NCBI GenBank assembly: GCA_963761725.1
Contig: CAVXHP010000006.1
Span: 445,534-509,533, forward strand
From: an uncultured Cytophagales bacterium
GTDB lineage: Bacteria; Bacteroidota; Bacteroidia; Cytophagales; Bernardetiaceae
DNA: 64,000 bases
Reading direction: 5' to 3'
Under the pieces are notes generated by a model. It worked only from the letters and a program-made list of their open reading frames with translations. It was not told the origin of the DNA and ran no database searches. The position numbers and the translations under genes were made by a program. The first letter of the stretch is position 1. Each line of letters starts with the position of its first letter. Shown one piece after another: positions 3,468-53,778 of the stretch.

Positions 3468-4277
3468 CTACTCTCCCTTCAATATAACTTCAAAACTTCC
3501 CTCACACTTCTGTATTCTAATAATAATTCCTTTGCTTTTTCTTCCGAAATCTCCAATTCTTCTACCAAAAAACGTGTTCCTCTTTTCAATAAGTTTTTGG
3601 TTAGAGAGCTGCATATCTACCATTTTATTTCCTTTTACTTTTCCTAATTGTATCATTACAGAAGTTGAAATCATATTCAAAACTAACTTTTGCGCTGTTC
3701 CTGCTTTCATGCGTGTGCTTCCAGTTACAAATTCTGCTCCCACAATTACTTCAATCGGAAACTGACTTGCTGCTGCAACTCCAGAATTTTTGTTACAAAC
3801 AATACAACCTGTCAAAAGTCCGTTTCCATTCGCTTTTTCTAATCCTCCAATTACGTAAGGCGTTCTGCCAGAAGCTGCAATTCCGATAAGTGTATCGTTT
3901 TTTGTTGGATTATAAGCTGCCAAATCTTTCCACGCTTGATTATTGTCATCTTCGGCAAATTCTACGGCTTTTCTGATTGCAGCATCTCCACCAGCAATAA
4001 GTCCGACCACTACATCGTGAGAAACTCCAAAAGTAGGAGGACATTCGGAAGCATCTACAACGCCTAAACGTCCACTTGTTCCTGCACCTATATAAAAAAG
4101 CCGTCCTCCTTTTTTCATTCGGATTACTATTTCTACTACTAATTTTTCTATATCTTCAATTACTTCTTTAACGGCAAAGGCGACTTTTTGGTCTTCTTGA
4201 TTTATGTTGAATAATAAATCTTTGACAGACATTTTTTCTAAATCTGTATAAAATGAATTTGATTCGGTAGTTGTCAT
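3468..4277 (-). CDS. murQ: N-acetylmuramic acid 6-phosphate etherase (SIS domain)
   Basis: SIS-domain motifs GAGTSGRLG, GIAASGRTPYV and the MurQ-like C-terminus. The extreme C-terminus may be affected by a frame problem. Confidence 0.75.
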   Translation of the reverse strand: MTTTESNSFYTDLEKMSVKDLLFNINQEDQKVAFAVKEVIEDIEKLVVEIVIRMKKGGRLFYIGAGTSGRLGVVDASECPPTFGVSHDVVVGLIAGGDAAIRKAVEFAEDDNNQAWKDLAAYNPTKNDTLIGIAASGRTPYVIGGLEKANGNGLLTGCIVCNKNSGVAAASQFPIEVIVGAEFVTGSTRMKAGTAQKLVLNMISTSVMIQLGKVKGNKMVDMQLSNQKLIEKRNTFFGRRIGDFGRKSKGIIIRIQKCEGSFEVILKGE

Positions 4278-4494: not shown

Positions 4495-6192
4495 TTATTT
4501 TTTCTTACCAATTCTGGAAAGCAAAATAGCAGGTAAAAGGCTTATCAAAATAATCAAAAGTGCAGGTAAAGCCGATTGAGCTACAAATTCTTGGTCTGCT
4601 AATTCATACGCCTTTGTCGCTAAAGTATCATAATTGAAAGGTCGTAAAATAAGTGTCAAAGGTAATTCTTTGCTCACATCTACAAAAACCAAAAGTAAAG
4701 CCGTTAGCATTGCAGGACGTAAGAAGAGGAAATGTAATTTTGAAAAAAGTCTGTGTAGCATTTTTTCCTAACATTCTAGAAGCCGATTCTAAAGAAGTTC
4801 CTATCTTAATCAACTGACTTTCAATAGGCTGAAAACCAACCGACAAGAAACGAACAGAATAAGCATAAATCAAAGAAACGACAGTTCCAGAAACAAATAA
4901 ACCAATTTTTATATCAAAATTATTCAATAGAAAAGAATATAATTTTTTATCAATCCAAAGAAAAACACCCAAAACTCCAACAGCAATTACAGCCCCCGGA
5001 ACGGCATAACCCATTGTAGCAATTCTACTAATTGACTGTTGAAAAAATAAAGAAAAAGGATAATTTTTGATAGAACAAAAAAAAATGTAGCCATTTGATT
5101 TATCAAATTTTCCTTTCTTACCATCTTCTCTGCCGTTGCTCGTGTCCTCACGAGCGACATTAAAACCACTCTCGCCGTTGTTGGTGTCCTCACCAACGAC
5201 ATTCAAACCAATATTTTTCTGATAAAGTCCCAACAAAACAGCTACAATCACAACTACAAAAGCACTCAAAAAAGTAATGTAATTGTGTGAGAAGCCAAGT
5301 AATAAATTTCTTCATTCAAAACATTACTTATTCCTTTGTCTTCAAATTCTTTAATTGTCCATAAAATAAGCTGCAAAACAGGAAATCCGAAAGCAAAACA
5401 AAAAATAATTCCACAATAACAAAAAGCAAAAATTTGTTGATAGACATTTAATGTTTTTCGTGGCATTTGAGCCGTATTTTTATCATCCGAAAAAGCCATT
5501 CTACCACGCTGATTTTTCTCCAAAATCACTAACAAAACAATCACTCCTAAAAGACATAAAGCTAGTTTCAAAGCAGCTTTTACATCTCCAAACTTTGCCC
5601 ACGCACTAAAAATTCCTGTCGTAAAAGTTTGTATTCCGTAATATTTGAAAGTGCCATATTCATTCAAAACTTCCATCATAACAAGTAAAAGTCCACCAAA
5701 AATAAAAGGACGAGCGAGTGGCAAAACAATTTTGAAAAATGTATAAATAGAAGATTTCCCCAGCATTTTTGAAGCCTCCCAAACACTTCCCAACTGATTG
5801 GAAAAAGCTGTTTTACTGACTGCATAAACGTACGGATAAAGAGCTAAAGAAAGAATAAATATTCCACCCAAATCGGACATAATTGGAACAGAAGGCAAAC
5901 TATTTTCTCTCAAAAAAATTCCAACTCCACCTGTATAAGAAAGCGTTGCAGCATAGGTATAAGCCAAAATATAAGCAGGAATGGCAAGAGGTAAAATCAA
6001 TGACCATTCAAAAAATTTACGTCCAAAAAAATCTGTAGCCGAAACTAGCCAAGCCGTAGGAAGACCCAAAAAAAGAACTCCCAAACTGACACCAAAAAGC
6101 ATTTTGAGAGAACCTAAAGTATAATCAAGCAACAAATTTTCAGAAATATGTTTCCAAGCCGTGCTACTTTCTCCATTATCCACCAAAATCAA
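4495..6192 (-). CDS. iron(III)-type ABC transporter permease (two-domain FbpB/ThiP family), disrupted: apparent frameshifts near 4765 and 5270-5275 plus an in-frame REP-like insertion
   Basis: ORFs 5266..6192, 4628..5269 and 4495..4761 together reconstruct a two-half ABC permease (ELP...LRPFNYDTLAT motif present). The breaks fall in T/A homopolymers. No ATPase or binding-protein partner is adjacent. Confidence 0.65.
5125..5210. repeat. two tandem 42-bp palindromic REP-like units (GCCGTTGCTCGTGTCCTCACGAGCGACATT / GCCGTTGTTGGTGTCCTCACCAACGACATT) embedded in frame in the permease gene
   Basis: Perfect 7-bp stems with TCCT loops. The ORF reads through them, giving a hydrophilic insert (VVGEDTNNGESGFNVAREDTSNGREDGKKGK) between the two permease halves. 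Confidence 0.7.
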
Positions 6193-6428
6193 AAGCCGTA
6201 AAAAGATACAAAATTGGCATACTCCACACTAAAAGTAGCCCAATTACTAAAAAGTAAGACAAAATTGAAGAAAAAATTGATTTTATTTGTTGCATTTGGT
6301 AGATTTTACTACTTTTTTGCTAATTTTGTGAGCAGAAATATATTTTTAGCTAAGCTAACTTTCAATTTTGCAAAGGTAAAACAATTACTATAAAATTGAA
6401 TTTATAATTTTGTATTTTCGTGTAATAC

Positions 6429-6492
6429 GTAGCTGACAGTTTCCAACTGTCAGAAATAAAGTATAAACGACAGTTGGGAAACTGTCGGCTAC
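6429..6492. repeat. double-hairpin palindrome upstream of recN (GTAGCTGACAGTTTCCAACTGTCAG ... CGACAGTTGGGAAACTGTCGGCTAC)
   Basis: Two 8-9 bp stem hairpins that are reverse complements of each other, forming a larger 25-bp-arm inverted repeat about 50 bp upstream of the recN start. Confidence 0.6.
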
Positions 6493-8299: not shown

Positions 8300-8938
8300 A
8301 TGAATCATGAAATCAAAACAGAATTACGAAATATCATTTCAGGAAAGAAGCAAGTTAGCGAAGGAAATTCTATCCAAACAATTGCCAACTACCTTAGAAG
8401 AAGCAAAGAAACAAGTAGAAATGCTCAAAAAAGGGAGTTTACAAAGCAAGAAGAAACAGAGTATTTAGTAAAATATATTTCTGATAATTCTTTGTGGATA
8501 AATGATTTAGAAAATTACGTTTACTTATCCGAAGGAGCAGAACAGAGAGTATATTTATCTAAAAATGCAACTCATGTTTTGAAATTAAATACTACTATTT
8601 TTTATGAATTTTGGATAGATTATTTTCATAGTTTACTGTTTCATAATTATTTCTTTCCTGACACAATTTACGAACTTGTAGGTTTTCATTACGATTCAAA
8701 TGAATTATGTGCTGTTGTAAAACAGAAGTATGTAAAAGCTGATAATCTAACAGATTTAGAAAATGTAAAGCATTTTTTGAACAAAAATAATTTCTTTATT
8801 AAGAAAAATAACGATTACTACAATTCAGATTTAGGTCTAATTTTGGAAGATTTACACGATGAAAATGTACTTACTTCTAGCGAAATGTTGTTTTTCATTG
8901 ATACCGTTTTTTATAGTACACCTTCATTTTTTGAATAG
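8300..8938 (+). CDS. hypothetical protein with a minimal protein-kinase-like signature
   Basis: 212 aa. LEDLHDENVL resembles a kinase catalytic loop (HxDxxxxN), IDT resembles the DFG Mg-binding site, and a VLKL Lys lies upstream. This is weak, motif-level evidence only. Confidence 0.35.
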   Translation: MNHEIKTELRNIISGKKQVSEGNSIQTIANYLRRSKETSRNAQKREFTKQEETEYLVKYISDNSLWINDLENYVYLSEGAEQRVYLSKNATHVLKLNTTIFYEFWIDYFHSLLFHNYFFPDTIYELVGFHYDSNELCAVVKQKYVKADNLTDLENVKHFLNKNNFFIKKNNDYYNSDLGLILEDLHDENVLTSSEMLFFIDTVFYSTPSFFE

Positions 8939-20043: not shown

Positions 20044-21222
20044 ATGGCGACTGCTTCAAATTCATCTCAAAACTCTATACAGAATCAAGAACAAATTCCT
20101 ATTATCGTAATAGGAAATCACGTTTATCCAAAAAATCCTCCTCATTTGTATTCTTCTTCTGACTCTGAAAAAGGATATACACGCAAAAAGAAAGGAAAGA
20201 AGTTTGTTTTTTTGAGTACAAAAGGAAAACCAATAAAAGGAAAGAAAAAATTAGAACGATTAGAAAAATTAGTCATTCCTCCAGCATGGACAGACGTTTG
20301 GATTTGTAGAAATAAAAATGGACACTTGCAAGCCGTTGGAAGAGATGAGCGAAACCGAAAACAAGCCATTTATCATCCAGATTGGAATGAATACAGAAAC
20401 AAAACAAAATTTTTGAAACTTCAAGAGTTTGGTTATGCGCTTCCTTATCTTCGAAAATCATTAAAAAAAGACCTTCGAAAACGAGATTGGAACAAAGATA
20501 AAGTTGTCGCACTTGCCATCGAACTTATGCAGGAAGGACTTTTGAGAATTGGTAGCGACCGTTATCTCAACTCAAACAAAACCTACGGACTTACAACACT
20601 TCGTCGAAAACATATAAAAATAGACGAAGAAACTAAAAACAAAATTTCACTTTGTTACAAAGCAAAAAGTAACAAACAGAGAACGGTAAGTTTGTCAAAT
20701 AAATCACTTATCAAAAAACTCAAAGAATGTGCAGCACTTTCTGGACAAGAACTTTTTAGATATAAAGGCGAGGATAACAAATGGTATCGCATCAATTCGC
20801 ACGAAGTAAATGAATATTTAGAGCAGAAAATGGAACATCATTTTACTGCCAAAACGTTCAGAACGTGGGGTGGAAGTATGCTCACTTTAGAACTTTTCGA
20901 AGATGCAAAGAAAGAACTAGAAGAGAATCCACGTAAAAAATTAGAAACTGTTTTAGTACGTAATGTAGCTGCTAAATTGGGAAATACCGTTTCAATTTGT
21001 AGAAATTATTATATTCATCCAGAAGTTTTGAGTGAAGTTTTATCAAAAACAACAGAAGAAATAGAAGCACAAACAGAAAAATTTTTGAAAGAAAAGGCAA
21101 AGGAAAAAACAGAATTAGCAAAAAACTTTTCGGATAATTTGGATAATTATTCAAAATATGAACTGCAACTTTTGGCTATTTTGGAAAAAGCAGCACAGAA
21201 AACACACGAGGAATTACTGTAA
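20044..21222 (+). CDS. DNA topoisomerase IB (poxvirus/bacterial type)
   Basis: IPPAWTDVWIC..GHLQAVGRDERNRKQAIYHPDW core motifs, catalytic-domain Arg/Lys residues, TAKTFRTWGGS and the active-site Tyr in SICRNYYIHPEV. Confidence 0.8.
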   Translation: MATASNSSQNSIQNQEQIPIIVIGNHVYPKNPPHLYSSSDSEKGYTRKKKGKKFVFLSTKGKPIKGKKKLERLEKLVIPPAWTDVWICRNKNGHLQAVGRDERNRKQAIYHPDWNEYRNKTKFLKLQEFGYALPYLRKSLKKDLRKRDWNKDKVVALAIELMQEGLLRIGSDRYLNSNKTYGLTTLRRKHIKIDEETKNKISLCYKAKSNKQRTVSLSNKSLIKKLKECAALSGQELFRYKGEDNKWYRINSHEVNEYLEQKMEHHFTAKTFRTWGGSMLTLELFEDAKKELEENPRKKLETVLVRNVAAKLGNTVSICRNYYIHPEVLSEVLSKTTEEIEAQTEKFLKEKAKEKTELAKNFSDNLDNYSKYELQLLAILEKAAQKTHEELL

Positions 21223-21234
21223 ACTTCATTTTTT

Positions 21235-21312
21235 CCATAACGTTGGGTTTGCAAACCCAACGTTATGGAAAAAATGCCGTTGTTGGTGTTTTAGCGAAGC
21301 GACACCAACAAC
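21235..21312. repeat. two REP-like palindromes: CCATAACGTTGGGTTTGCAAACCCAACGTTATGG (perfect 34-bp palindrome) and GCCGTTGTTGGTGTTTTAGCGAAGCGACACCAACAAC
   Basis: Seen directly. The second unit belongs to the same TTGTTGGTGT...ACACCAACAA family as 5174-5203 and 53739-53778. Confidence 0.7.
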
Positions 21313-21381
21313 AAAATAACCACCGAGTATTTGTATCTTCCCTTAGCAATTGTGTGGTAATCCAGACGTTGCTAATGGGAA

Positions 21382-22527
21382 CTAAAGCACAAGCAAATTA
21401 CAACCTCTAACATCAGAATAATCAAAACGCCCTAAAACTTGAAACTCTCCTTTTTGATTAATTTTACCTAAATCCTGCGTTTCTATAAAACCACAACTTT
21501 CCACATTTGCCAAATCAATAACATTAATTGCTCCACTTTGAATTTCAGATTTATTTACTAATTCTTTATTATTCTTCAAATCAAAAGGATCATTTGTATC
21601 ACGAATAATAATTTTGAGATAAGAAGGAGTTTGAAACCATATTTCATTTTCAGTATTAACTTTACTACTACTCTTTTCTGTATTTTTAATGGCATACCCT
21701 TGAGATAAAAGTTCTGTCATTCCGTATTCTGAATCAATTGCAGAAACTCCGAAAGCAGTTTTTAATATTTGATGCACTTCTTCTCGTACCATTTCCTTTT
21801 TTCTGCCTTTCATTCCTCCAGTTTCCATTACGATTATTTCATTTTTTACATTTTTTTTTTCTTCTAAATCATCAAATTGTTTTGTCTTTGGTAATCGGTA
21901 ATTTGGATAATTTTCTCTCAAAAAATCAGCAAAATCCAAAAGTGCAAAAGTAACTCCTAATAATAAAACTGGTTTTGTAGGATTTGTTATAACTACTTTT
22001 TCTAATTCTGTTTTGAGTTTTTCATAATCGTACAAGAAATAATTTGAATTAGGTTGTGCATTCTTCAAAAAATAATCTACCATATAAATCAGCGAAGAAC
22101 CATCACGTTCTAAATAAGAAGGCAGTAATGCAAAAATTTGAAAATCATCTAATTTTCCGTATTCTTTATACAGTTCTTCAAAAATAAATTGACTAGATTT
22201 TTCATAAAAATTTAAATCCGAAATAGCGTGTTTACTTCTATTAGTTTGGTCACTTGTTCCACTACTTGTAAAAATTTGATTTGTCTTTATGCCTTCTATT
22301 TGAACATGATGTGACTTAAAAAATCGAATAGGCAAAAATGGAATCTTGTAAATCGATTTTATTTCTGTTGAATCAATATTCAATTTCTCAATATACTCCT
22401 TATATACAGGATTGTATTTTGATTGAAAATAAAACAATTCTAAAGCCTTCGTCTCAAATGCTGCGAAATCATTTTTTGGAATAGAAAAAATACTTTTTTT
22501 GTAATCTTTGATAAAATTTTGGTGCAT
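21382..22527 (-). CDS. LuxE-like acyl-protein synthetase / adenylate-forming enzyme (PaaK/F390-synthetase superfamily)
   Basis: 381 aa. The N-terminal FxIxxxDFxxxALELFxFQ pattern and overall size match Bacteroidota LuxE-family proteins. Assigned at family level from memory. Confidence 0.55.
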   Translation of the reverse strand: MHQNFIKDYKKSIFSIPKNDFAAFETKALELFYFQSKYNPVYKEYIEKLNIDSTEIKSIYKIPFLPIRFFKSHHVQIEGIKTNQIFTSSGTSDQTNRSKHAISDLNFYEKSSQFIFEELYKEYGKLDDFQIFALLPSYLERDGSSLIYMVDYFLKNAQPNSNYFLYDYEKLKTELEKVVITNPTKPVLLLGVTFALLDFADFLRENYPNYRLPKTKQFDDLEEKKNVKNEIIVMETGGMKGRKKEMVREEVHQILKTAFGVSAIDSEYGMTELLSQGYAIKNTEKSSSKVNTENEIWFQTPSYLKIIIRDTNDPFDLKNNKELVNKSEIQSGAINVIDLANVESCGFIETQDLGKINQKGEFQVLGRFDYSDVRGCNLLVL

Positions 22528-30334: not shown

Positions 30335-30566
30335 CAACATGAGTGTCATTGGTAAAAATCAAAAATGCGTTTATTAGCTACAGAGTAGCTTTACCTTGGT
30401 AGAACAAGAATAGAAATTGATTTAAAAAGCTACAGCGTAGCGTAACTTTATTTTTAATTGCCAAGTTTCGCTACGCTGTAGCTCTACTAAAGTACTTTTT
30501 TGATGTTCTACCAAGGTTACGTTGCTCTGCAACTAAAAGTCAATACCTAACAATGACACTCATATT
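30335..30566. mobile_element. ~232-bp MITE-like nested-hairpin element with imperfect TIRs (CAACATGAGTGTCATTGGTA / TACCTAACAATGACACTCATATT) flanked by a 7-bp direct repeat GAATGAT (30328-30334 and 30567-30573)
   Basis: Outer TIRs, then a second inverted-repeat pair (TTAGCTACAGAGTAGCTTTACCTTGGTAGAACA / TGTTCTACCAAGGTTACGTTGCTCTGCAACTAA), then a perfect 15-bp inner pair (AGCTACAGCGTAGCG / CGCTACGCTGTAGCT). Confidence 0.6.
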
Positions 30567-52021: not shown

Positions 52022-53722
52022 ATGGAATATCTAAGAAAATCGCTAATAAAATTATCTTCAATTACGAAAGTCACTTTGATGGCTACTTCTACTTTATTTA
52101 TTGTATCGTGTAGTACAAACAAGACAGGTAATTATGAAATGGCTGATACTGCTAATAATGAAGCTCTGGAAGATGTAGCTTCTTCTACTACCAGAATAAA
52201 TAGAAGTATAGAGAAAAAAGAGATGGCTATAGAATATGCTGAAAGTGAAATGTACATAGCCGATGAAATACAGCAAAACACAGAAGAATATCAAAAACAA
52301 GTAGAAAATAAATTTATAGAAGTCTCAAAAGAAGCCTTATCTACTTTTTCTATTGATGTTGATAATGCTTCGTATTCAAATGCTCGTCGTTTTATTCAGT
52401 CTGGACAGCTTCCAAATCCTGATGCTGTTCGTATCGAAGAGTTTATTAATTACTTTGATTACGATTATGAAAAACCAACAGGAAAACACCCTTTTTCAGT
52501 AAGTACAGAAATTTCGGTTGCACCTTGGAATGAAAAACACAAACTTGTACACGTCGGAATACAAGGAAAAGATGTAGATTATGACAATCTTGCGCCTTCA
52601 AATTTAGTGTTTTTGATTGATGCTTCTGGTTCGATGTCAGCACAAAATAAACTTCCTCTTCTTCGTTCTTCTTTAAAACTTCTTCTTTCTCAACTTGGAA
52701 AAAATGACCGTATTGCGATTGTAGCTTATGCAGGTGCAGCAGGTTTGGTTTTGGAATCTACTCCAGCAAGTGAAACAGAAAAAATTATAAAAGCATTAGA
52801 TGCCGTTTCTTCTGGTGGAAGTACAGCAGGAGGAGCAGGAATACAACTTGCTTATAGTTTGGCGAAAGATAATTTGATAAAAGAAGGAAATAACCGAGTT
52901 ATTTTGTGTACCGATGGTGATTTTAATGTAGGTGTAAATTCTCCAAAAGCCTTGGTAGAAATGATTGAAACCAAACGAAACGACGGAATTTATTTGACTG
53001 TTTGTGGTTTTGGAATGGGAAATTACAAAGACCATCAAATGGAGGAACTTAGTAATGCAGGTAATGGAAATTATTTTTACATTGATAATATTCAAGAAGC
53101 AAAAAAGGTTTTCGTTACACAGATGAGAGCTACACTTTTTACGATTGCTAAAGATGTAAAGATTCAAATAGAATTTAATCCTGCAAAAGTAGCAGCTTAT
53201 CGTTTGATTGGTTATGAAAACAGAATGCTACAAAAAGAAGATTTTAACGACGACAAAAAAGATGCAGGCGAATTAGGTGCTGGACATACTGTAACAGCAT
53301 TGTATGAAATCATTCCTATTGGTGTAAAAAGTGAATTTTTGCCTTCGGTAGATGATTTGCGTTACCAAAAAAATGGAAATAAAGAAGAGAATAAAATCAA
53401 AGAATCTTATTCAGCAGCAGCTTCTTCTGACGAATTATTAAACTTAAAATTACGTTACAAAAAGCCTAATGAAGACACCAGTAATTTGATTGTCAATCCA
53501 TTGAAAGATGATAACATTGCTTTAGAAAAAACTTCTGATAATTTTCGTTTTTCGGCTGCCGTAGCAGAATTTGGAATGATTTTGAGAAATTCAGAGTTCA
53601 AATCAAATGCTTCTTACAATCAAGTTATTGATTTAGCCAAAAATTCAAAAGGAAAAGATACAGAAGGCTACCGAGCAGAATTTTTGAAATTGGTAGAAAG
53701 CTGTCAATTGATGTCTAAATAA
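52022..53722 (+). CDS. von Willebrand factor type A domain lipoprotein (YfbK-like: vWA N-terminal domain + vWA + DUF3520-like C-terminus)
   Basis: Signal peptide/lipobox (LFIVSCS), FSIDVDNASYSNARRFI...EEFINYFDYDY N-terminal domain and the vWA MIDAS (DASGSM...TDGDFNVG). The ORF track starts at 51950; the ATG at 52022 gives a cleaner signal peptide. Confidence 0.8.
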   Translation: MEYLRKSLIKLSSITKVTLMATSTLFIVSCSTNKTGNYEMADTANNEALEDVASSTTRINRSIEKKEMAIEYAESEMYIADEIQQNTEEYQKQVENKFIEVSKEALSTFSIDVDNASYSNARRFIQSGQLPNPDAVRIEEFINYFDYDYEKPTGKHPFSVSTEISVAPWNEKHKLVHVGIQGKDVDYDNLAPSNLVFLIDASGSMSAQNKLPLLRSSLKLLLSQLGKNDRIAIVAYAGAAGLVLESTPASETEKIIKALDAVSSGGSTAGGAGIQLAYSLAKDNLIKEGNNRVILCTDGDFNVGVNSPKALVEMIETKRNDGIYLTVCGFGMGNYKDHQMEELSNAGNGNYFYIDNIQEAKKVFVTQMRATLFTIAKDVKIQIEFNPAKVAAYRLIGYENRMLQKEDFNDDKKDAGELGAGHTVTALYEIIPIGVKSEFLPSVDDLRYQKNGNKEENKIKESYSAAASSDELLNLKLRYKKPNEDTSNLIVNPLKDDNIALEKTSDNFRFSAAVAEFGMILRNSEFKSNASYNQVIDLAKNSKGKDTEGYRAEFLKLVESCQLMSK

Positions 53723-53738: not shown

Positions 53739-53778
53739 GCTTTTGTTGGTGTCGCTACGCTAAAACACCAACAAAGGC
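53739..53778. repeat. REP-like palindrome GCTTTTGTTGGTGTCGCTACGCTAAAACACCAACAAAGGC
   Basis: Same TTGTTGGTGT / ACACCAACAA stem family as 21276-21312 (loop in inverted orientation) and 5174-5203. Confidence 0.65.

Follow-up and report, generated by a model that had tools for sequence, protein, structure and literature searches.

A 64-kb stretch of DNA from an uncultured Cytophagales bacterium (contig CAVXHP010000006.1, positions 445,534 to 509,533; the whole stretch is called the window here) carries on its minus strand a gene for a fused two-domain iron(III) ATP-binding cassette (ABC) permease (4495 to 6295), and within this gene lies a pair of short palindromic repeats (5132 to 5203). At 32% G+C and with the standard genetic code, the window encodes GldM as well as a type IX secretion system (T9SS) sorting domain; its best protein matches are from Bernardetia (Bacteroidota). 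An earlier reading of the sequence, referred to as the original prediction, had described an iron-type permease interrupted by repeats resembling repetitive extragenic palindromic (REP) elements. The host gene was correctly named: it encodes two BPD_transp_1 domains and 12 predicted helices, matches the solved chain 9j4r_A (“Iron ABC transporter permease”) with an E value of 1e-38, and has homologs whose names agree. The repeats were also correctly named, as the hairpin is a catalogued REP linked in both directions to REP-associated tyrosine transposase (RAYT) genes, and the pair is a small direct REP cluster inside a coding region.

Both members of the pair are short-loop REP units whose top strand is the plus strand of the window, antisense to the permease gene. 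Unit 1 (5132 to 5161) consists of a GCC foot (5132 to 5134), the hairpin GTTGCTCGTG-TCCT-CACGAGCGAC with stem arms at 5135 to 5144 and 5149 to 5158 on either side of the TCCT loop, and a terminal ATT. Unit 2 (5174 to 5203) has the same plan, with the foot at 5174 to 5176, the hairpin GTTGTTGGTG-TCCT-CACCAACGAC (arms at 5177 to 5186 and 5191 to 5200, TCCT between them), and again a terminal ATT. Together they form a direct tandem with a period of 42 nt, equivalent to 14 codons (plus strand, 5125 to 5210: ...ctgCCGTTGCTCGTGtcctCACGAGCGACatt-aaaaccactctc-GCCGTTGTTGGTGtcctCACCAACGACatt...), and the REP oligonucleotide sequence of the top strand is GCCGTTGTTGGTGTTATCACCAACAAC. Perfect stems had been proposed for both units; the units are present, but the third stem pair of each is T·G on the plus strand and is mismatched (C·A) on the coding strand. 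The plus strand folds into two 10-bp hairpins at −18.3 kcal/mol (z = −5.6, with 0 of 200 shuffles as good), whereas on the sense (minus) strand the stems reach no more than 7 bp (z = −3.0).

The stems of the two units differ by two paired changes (GCTCGTG/CACGAGC versus GTTGGTG/CACCAAC). Because the unit 1 variant is also found at an unrelated intergenic site on another Bernardetia contig (position 7125 of L128; retrieved loci carry L numbers), this difference is more likely to reflect REP subfamilies or conversion between copies, and compensatory evolution in place is less likely. A hairpin of the unit 1 type is the sole unit in one permease ortholog (L126). The foot and arms of unit 2 are those of intergenic Bernardetia copies in L012 and L047, with a difference in the 4-nt loop only, and unit 2 shares the 14-nt exact match GCCGTTGTTGGTGT with an intergenic copy at position 21276 of the window. 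The flanks ATT-AAACCA, which extend past the REP consensus, are common to both units, so at least one step in the history of the pair was a local 42-nt tandem duplication.

Reading of the sequence found no stop codon in the REP stem in any of the six frames, and the permease frame is open through the pair (NVVGEDTNNGESGF / NVAREDTSNGREDG), where the minus strand of unit 1 encodes NVAREDTSNG and that of unit 2 encodes NVVGEDTNNG. The proposal that the pair lies in frame within the permease therefore holds locally, but the gene as a whole is split in the window by three single-base indels, near 6153, 5275, and 4720. Compared with their Bernardetia orthologs, at least 4 of the roughly 14 genes in the first 16 kb contain frameshifts, the permease three of them; the others are PepN, a SIS-domain gene, and a hypothetical gene, and frameshift sites besides those in the permease lie near 3550, 11900, and 14800. 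Because these neighboring genes are also frameshifted, the permease indels are probably sequence (assembly) errors and not biology, and real pseudogenization of the permease was downgraded. An alternative genetic code with TGA recoding was rejected as the source of the in-gene stops, since open reading frame (ORF) statistics fit translation table 11 and the breaks are frameshifts.

In the frame-corrected protein, the repeat-encoded insert is a hydrophilic segment of residues 365 to 392. It had been placed exactly between the two permease halves. However, the K/R-rich inter-half linker spans residues 259 to 283, and the insert lies about 80 residues beyond it, with two more helices between. Hydropathy, the distribution of K and R residues, and the positions of the two EAA loops place the insert in the loop between transmembrane helices 8 and 9 (TM8-TM9), and the topology of this permease fold predicts that this loop is on the cytoplasmic side, as originally proposed.

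Alignment with 17 Bernardetia orthologs (83 to 87% identical, 535 to 622 amino acids), whose orthology is backed by synteny, confirmed a genus-specific in-frame insert. Differences in length between these proteins fall almost only at the insert site, and the sequence IKNYPFSLFF after the insert is common to 16 of the 17 with minor substitutions, the exception being the more distant P0017. The insert is at the same codon position throughout, in 0 to 2 copies that are intact or decayed. For example, L001 has two hairpin units, L002 has one intact unit and a deleted remnant, and L122 and L126 have one unit each, of the unit 2 and unit 1 types, respectively. Hairpin arms are decayed in L123, L124, L125, and L128, and in L127 (P0015/P0016) the REP is absent and an unrelated AT-rich 30-nt segment stands in its place. 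The peptide motif VVGxDTNNG recurs in most Bernardetia orthologs. In homologs from Hugenholtzia, Xanthovirga, Marivirga, Tenacibaculum, and Cecembia, the loop is short and lacks the insert. A neighbor-joining tree leaves the branching among P0015/P0016, P0017, and the rest of the sequences unresolved at its base, so the insertion is old in the genus; L127 could represent either an ancestral empty state or a replacement, and the tree is compatible with both. Decay or absence in five orthologs speaks against the idea that the peptide or the hairpin is under strong selection, and the insert is presumably neutral for the protein. These orthologs also have a second, nonpalindromic length polymorphism at about 6150 to 6165 of the window, where the first periplasmic loop either has or lacks a segment FG-(G/E/Q)-N of about 5 residues.

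Two further loci of the family lie in the window, where the original prediction had reported related repeats. The first (21276 to 21312, plus strand) reads GCC followed by GTTGTTGGTGT-TTTAGCGAAGCG-ACACCAACAAC and sits between convergent genes ending at 21222 and 21382; the second (53742 to 53778, minus strand) reads GCC followed by TTTGTTGGTGT-TTTAGCGTAGCG-ACACCAACAAA and sits between convergent genes ending at 53722 and 53885. The original prediction had given them a shared stem with the loop in opposite orientation; they are one element of about 38 nt in opposite orientations. At 21279 to 21312 and 53742 to 53775, each has an 11-bp stem and a 12-nt loop with a mini-hairpin motif, GCGAAGC or GCGTAGC, the former in the copy at 21276. 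The pattern TTGTTGGTGT-N-ACACCAACAA matches at 21280 to 21311 and 53743 to 53774 (0 expected), and GTTGGTG-N(4-20)-CACCAAC was observed three times in the window (0 expected). This long-loop form also occurs in many other Bacteroidota, and it lies beside RAYT genes in L003, L133, and L184.

A scan of one genome per species with the pattern GTTGTTGGTG-N(4-16)-CACCAACRAC returned at least 119 stretches, compared to a roughly estimated chance expectation of a few tens over the whole collection. Nearly all of the matches listed were from Bacteroidota or Ignavibacteriota/Chlorobiota, the former including Mucilaginibacter, Rufibacter, Pontibacter, Ferruginibacter, Runella, Chitinophagaceae, Cytophagales, and Bernardetia. 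On the top strand, the family unit is asymmetric, with a 5′ GCC foot and a 10- to 11-bp stem, GTTGTTGGTG/CACCAACAAC; units measure 27 to 37 nt including the foot and have single-strand fold z scores of −3.5 to −5.6. Two loop classes recur, one of 4 to 5 nt that is T or pyrimidine rich on the 5′ GCC strand and one of about 14 nt (TTTTAGCGNAGCGA) with a GCGNAGC mini-hairpin. The GCC foot is present in 116 of 159 distinct oriented copies and in all four units of the window, and the loops are T rich. Stem positions 1 to 3 show two-sided changes among these 159 copies (e.g., G-C to C-G, T-A, or A-T), and the subfamily stems GCTCGTG/CACGAGC, GTCGGTG/CACCGAC, and GGTC/GACC are all self-complementary; across copies, the stem is kept by compensatory changes. 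A family-wide comparison of G·T and A·C mispairs found no clear strand asymmetry at unbiased positions, but this test was confounded by the search pattern, in which R was permitted at the T·G position, and the asymmetry is an observation on Bernardetia copies only.

Copies of the family are mostly extragenic, and most apparent cases within a long ORF are upstream of the real start codon. Two exceptions resemble the permease in carrying an in-frame copy. In Ferruginibacter sp. HRS2-29 (L052, about 1 to 400), a fused ABC ATP-binding protein has three direct 114-nt repeats, each with a REP, in frame in the linker that joins its two ATPase domains, making this a second ABC transporter case; the other in-frame copy is in a membrane protein (L020). 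In other Bernardetia genomes, further copies were found at other sites (L012, L047, L067, and L128). These related copies, like the absence of the linker from homologs outside the genus, agree with the REP reading of the original prediction.

The family could be linked to a transposase through a published catalog, in which GCCGTTGTTGGTGTTATCACCAACAACC is listed as the REP beside the subclass 2.6 tnpA_REP gene AEI49282.1 of Runella slithyformis (Quentin et al. 2018, BMC Genomics 19:475, PMC6006769, Table S1). The window hairpin with its GCC foot is identical to this Runella REP in foot and stem. Subclass 2.6 is mostly from Bacteroidetes and has atypical REPs without GT[AG]G (PMC6006769), with which the GCC foot of the present family is consistent. 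Motif and profile searches of the hairpin loci revealed a RAYT ORF beside the hairpin in 7 of the 119 loci among the matches listed (L014, L024, L032, L037, L055, L110, and L003, the last frameshifted), all from other Bacteroidota genomes. In five of these seven (L024, L032, L037, L055, and L110) a copy of the family stands on each side of the RAYT gene, and four of those five have the REPtron layout, with the upstream copy in the foot/T-loop orientation and the downstream copy inverted. The ORFs encode about 172 amino acids with the motifs NH[LIM]H and YIHxNP, which match the tabulated subclass 2.6 signatures NH[LIV]H and YIH[QN]NP (PMC6006769). Each of the six intact ORFs has a match to the NCBIfam family NF047646 (“REP-associated tyrosine transposase”), with E values down to 3e-24, and the best solved structure for the ORF profile is Escherichia coli TnpA_REP (4er8; E = 3e-6). 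Close homologs are named RayT by several database sources within a very large family (6,535 matches).

The association was also found in the reverse direction. Among 80 RAYT homologs from metagenomes, fetched without reference to the hairpin, 19 have a hairpin of the family no more than 500 bp away; most of these 19 are among the homologs closer to the query. This set includes the compensated stem GGTC/GACC, and two of its loci (L133 and L184) have the long-loop and short-loop forms together. The link between this REP and RAYT genes in other genomes is thus documented both from the hairpin and from the transposase.

Taken together, the evidence argues, with a probability that we put at roughly 85%, that the repeats belong to a REP family that accompanies one Bacteroidota RAYT/TnpA_REP clade (subclass 2.6, group 5 of Bertels). 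We infer that a RAYT was also the origin of this particular copy. By analogy with the HUH/Y1 family and with work on E. coli TnpA_REP, the transposase would recognize the folded single-stranded top strand together with its foot, cut and rejoin the strand, and in this way seed new copies. Early in the history of Bernardetia, one such copy would have landed in the part of the iron permease gene that encodes the TM8-TM9 loop; the array would then have expanded, contracted, and decayed by lineage, as REP clusters do, with two direct units left in the window. The copy probably survived because the stem is free of stops, a unit of this length does not shift the frame, and the loop at this site is short and variable.

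Several observations weigh against this assignment. Pfam searches of candidate ORFs, a motif regular expression, and a six-frame profile search revealed no RAYT in the window, about 230 kb of Bernardetia DNA likewise yielded none, and profile searching placed no Bernardetia RAYT among 120 matches listed of 6,535. Nor was any Bernardetia RAYT flanked by this REP found; the three subclass 2.6 genes tabulated for Flexibacter (= Bernardetia) litoralis are each listed with other REP sequences (PMC6006769). The RAYT ORFs near the hairpins score under the curated Pfam and NCBIfam cutoffs. The family lacks the classical GTAG or CGTC tag. Its density is low, with three loci in 64 kb here, two of them extragenic, and two more copies in the syntenic regions of other strains, which total about 130 kb (about one locus per 20 to 40 kb). 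The family may be a relic in Bernardetia. Finally, because L127 has an unrelated 30-nt segment at the insert site, neither a clean empty site nor a target duplication documents the insertion.

Other explanations of the pair were weighed on the same evidence. REPs of other bacteria can stabilize upstream mRNA, and their G·T pairs suggest a single-strand function (PMC3733652), so the pair could be a cis-acting RNA element selected in the transcript as an internal stabilizer, a pause site, or an antisense-RNA structure; the better fold is on the antisense strand, which also favors this reading. This is improbable, although it fares best among the alternatives: on the mRNA strand each stem contains the C·A mismatch and is reduced to 7 bp, the hairpin is lost or decayed in the five orthologs described above, no T tract follows either hairpin on direct reading of the sequence, and Rfam returned no match at gathering thresholds (permissive searching gave only generic matches to long-hairpin microRNA precursors).

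Slightly less credible is that the pair was made locally by replication slippage or quasi-palindrome correction, with no transposase involved and with the likeness to the family due to convergence. The shared ATT-AAACCA flanks do require at least one local duplication, and copy number differs between strains. Convergence, however, would have to account for the 14-nt identity between unit 2 and the copy at 21276, for a foot, stem, and T·G position that are the same as in the intergenic copies of L012 and L047, and for the occurrence of the unit 1 stem at L128. Least likely of all is that selection for the peptide maintains the segment as a protein-level repeat, with palindromy incidental; the peptide might, for example, be a cytoplasmic loop, acidic and Asn/Gly rich, that binds metal or contacts the ATPase. 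Although the motif VVGxDTNNG recurs in most orthologs and the insert is hydrophilic and lies in a loop, the same DNA is also found between genes, in either orientation, and in different reading frames, the V-V-G and T-N-N codons are exact reverse complements as no peptide selection would need, and the motif has decayed or gone missing in several proteins that are otherwise 83 to 88% identical.

The REP assignment was also compared with other classes of repeat. The pair is not a REPIN (an inverted doublet), being a direct tandem; elsewhere, the family does include inverted pairs, in the genomes of L013, L014, L094, L097, L100, and L109. A miniature inverted-repeat transposable element (MITE), which would have a body of 70 to 300 bp, was rejected, as units are only 27 to 37 nt and inspection found no direct duplications flanking the copies. 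Clustered regularly interspaced short palindromic repeats (CRISPR) do not fit either, with single intergenic copies in the window and clusters elsewhere that repeat their flanks too and are irregularly spaced at 46 to 190 nt. An intrinsic terminator (GC-rich hairpin plus T tract) was not detected in a scan of 21100 to 21450, and inspection found no T run 3′ of the REP hairpins of the pair or of the two long-loop copies. Matches to the sequence in the literature were primer and short hairpin RNA (shRNA) coincidences only.

Among known systems, the closest are the REPs of subclass 2.6 and RAYT group 5. Besides the foot and stem, the short T-rich type of loop is shared with the Runella REP, and the family lacks GTAG, is centered on Bacteroidota, and has a RAYT gene flanked by inverted copies. 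It has a moderate copy number, in keeping with a published figure for group 5 of roughly 31 occurrences of flanking 16-mers (Bertels et al. 2017, GBE 9:2110). Unlike these, the window has no inverted doublets of this family and no nearby RAYT, one of its loci is an intragenic direct tandem, and the long-loop GCGNAGC form is also present. Intragenic REPs are uncommon, as had been remarked, yet already documented: GTAG/CGTC REPs occur within the reading frames of functional genes, commonly as dimers or in groups, add 20 to 30 residues, and are missing from homologs in related species (Di Nocera et al. 2013, BMC Genomics 14:522; PMC3733652), and REP insertions inside subclass 2.4 tnpA_REP genes have been described (PMC6006769). 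The permease pair resembles the former as a short in-frame palindromic repeat but belongs to another REP superfamily, with a GCC foot, has its host in another phylum, and lies in a membrane permease gene as opposed to the replication and repair genes emphasized there. With these precedents (PMC3733652, PMC6006769), the pair is a tidy example and not a new kind of element.

E. coli REPs and bacterial interspersed mosaic elements (BIMEs) with TnpA_REP (4er8) share an HUH/Y1 transposase homolog, a hairpin with a short 5′ foot, and clustering of units, but have a GTAG foot in place of GCC and belong to subclass 2.2 instead of 2.6. We know of no integration host factor (IHF), gyrase, or Pol I binding for the present family. 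Rickettsia palindromic elements (RPEs) are Rickettsia-specific repeats of 100 to 150 bp that lie in frame in ORFs and add a surface peptide segment; to our knowledge, they have no RAYT partner. They resemble the permease pair as a palindromic repeat tolerated in frame, but their sequence is unrelated.

Other repeats were noted in the window. Abutting the long-loop copy at 21276 is a separate palindrome, which had been given as a 34-bp palindrome at 21235 to 21268 but is really a 50-nt structure at 21227 to 21276, with a 23-bp stem, a 4-nt loop, and T6/A6 shoulders. It is probably a bidirectional terminator-type hairpin. This palindrome is outside the GTTGTTGGTG family, and it was rejected as a second REP family because it is a singleton, with no further copies in the window or in all 208 loci; a tentative lead is that in its core, CGTTGGGTTTGCAAACCCAACG, it is similar to another of the Runella REPs, CGTTGGGATTACAAATCCCAACG (PMC6006769). 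Closer to the permease, a canonical GTAG-footed inverted hairpin doublet at 6429 to 6492, GTAG-CTGACAGTT-tcc-AACTGTCAG ... CGACAGTT-ggga-AACTGTCG-G-CTAC, occupies the divergent intergenic region between the permease and a RecN-like gene and has the look of a REPIN, from a second REP family of the classical type. Its hairpin is also found upstream of the permease in L001 (42 to 58) but in none of the other loci examined.

A hairpin at 30428 to 30483, with 21-nt arms that are 95% complementary and GTAGCG/CGCTAC motifs, lies in a divergent intergenic region. At 33465 to 33576, four GC-rich hairpins with 4-nt loops have a BIME-like arrangement in a 660-bp intergenic region, with an inverted pair among them (TCGCTTC-CTCA-GAAGCGA / CGCTTC-TGAG-GAAGC), and the stems of the cluster resemble F. 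litoralis REPs (PMC6006769). A terminator-like hairpin, AAAAAGGCTTTGCATCA...TGATACAAAGCCTTTTT, occurs three times (35601 to 35648, 62180 to 62227, and 62643 to 62671) as a further small repeat family. Among genes, an 825-amino-acid ORF (30762 to 33239) with Major Vault Protein (MVP) shoulder and vault repeat domains is a bacterial MVP homolog, similar to a gene in Bernardetia L127 (from 11137), and a Kinase-PolyVal domain gene (8300 to 8938) lies between the RecN-like gene and nspC, in a slot that is variable in Bernardetia genomes and can hold an Mrr restriction enzyme, hypothetical genes, or insertion sequence (IS) fragments.

A broader possibility, which we hold only tentatively and consider rather doubtful, is that because the stem is open in all six frames, this REP has been repeatedly taken up into protein loops and linkers. 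The basis for this proposal is that the REP, along with its subclass 2.6 RAYT, is nearly identical base for base across Bacteroidota and Ignavibacteriota/Chlorobiota and that the REP is found in frame in both the Bernardetia permease and the Ferruginibacter ATPase. If true, it would constitute a transposase-driven, phylum-wide source of peptide inserts that vary in copy number.

For the family itself, the analysis ties an odd in-frame palindrome of a transporter gene to a catalogued REP/RAYT lineage and documents the REP-RAYT link in both directions for the little-studied Bacteroidota subclass 2.6, including its short- and long-loop forms and its GCC foot. For annotation, the variable “linker” of Bernardetia iron permeases would be the footprint of a mobile element and not a functional domain. 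The ortholog series, with zero, one, or two copies that are intact or decayed, provides a small natural experiment on the tolerance and erosion of intragenic REPs.

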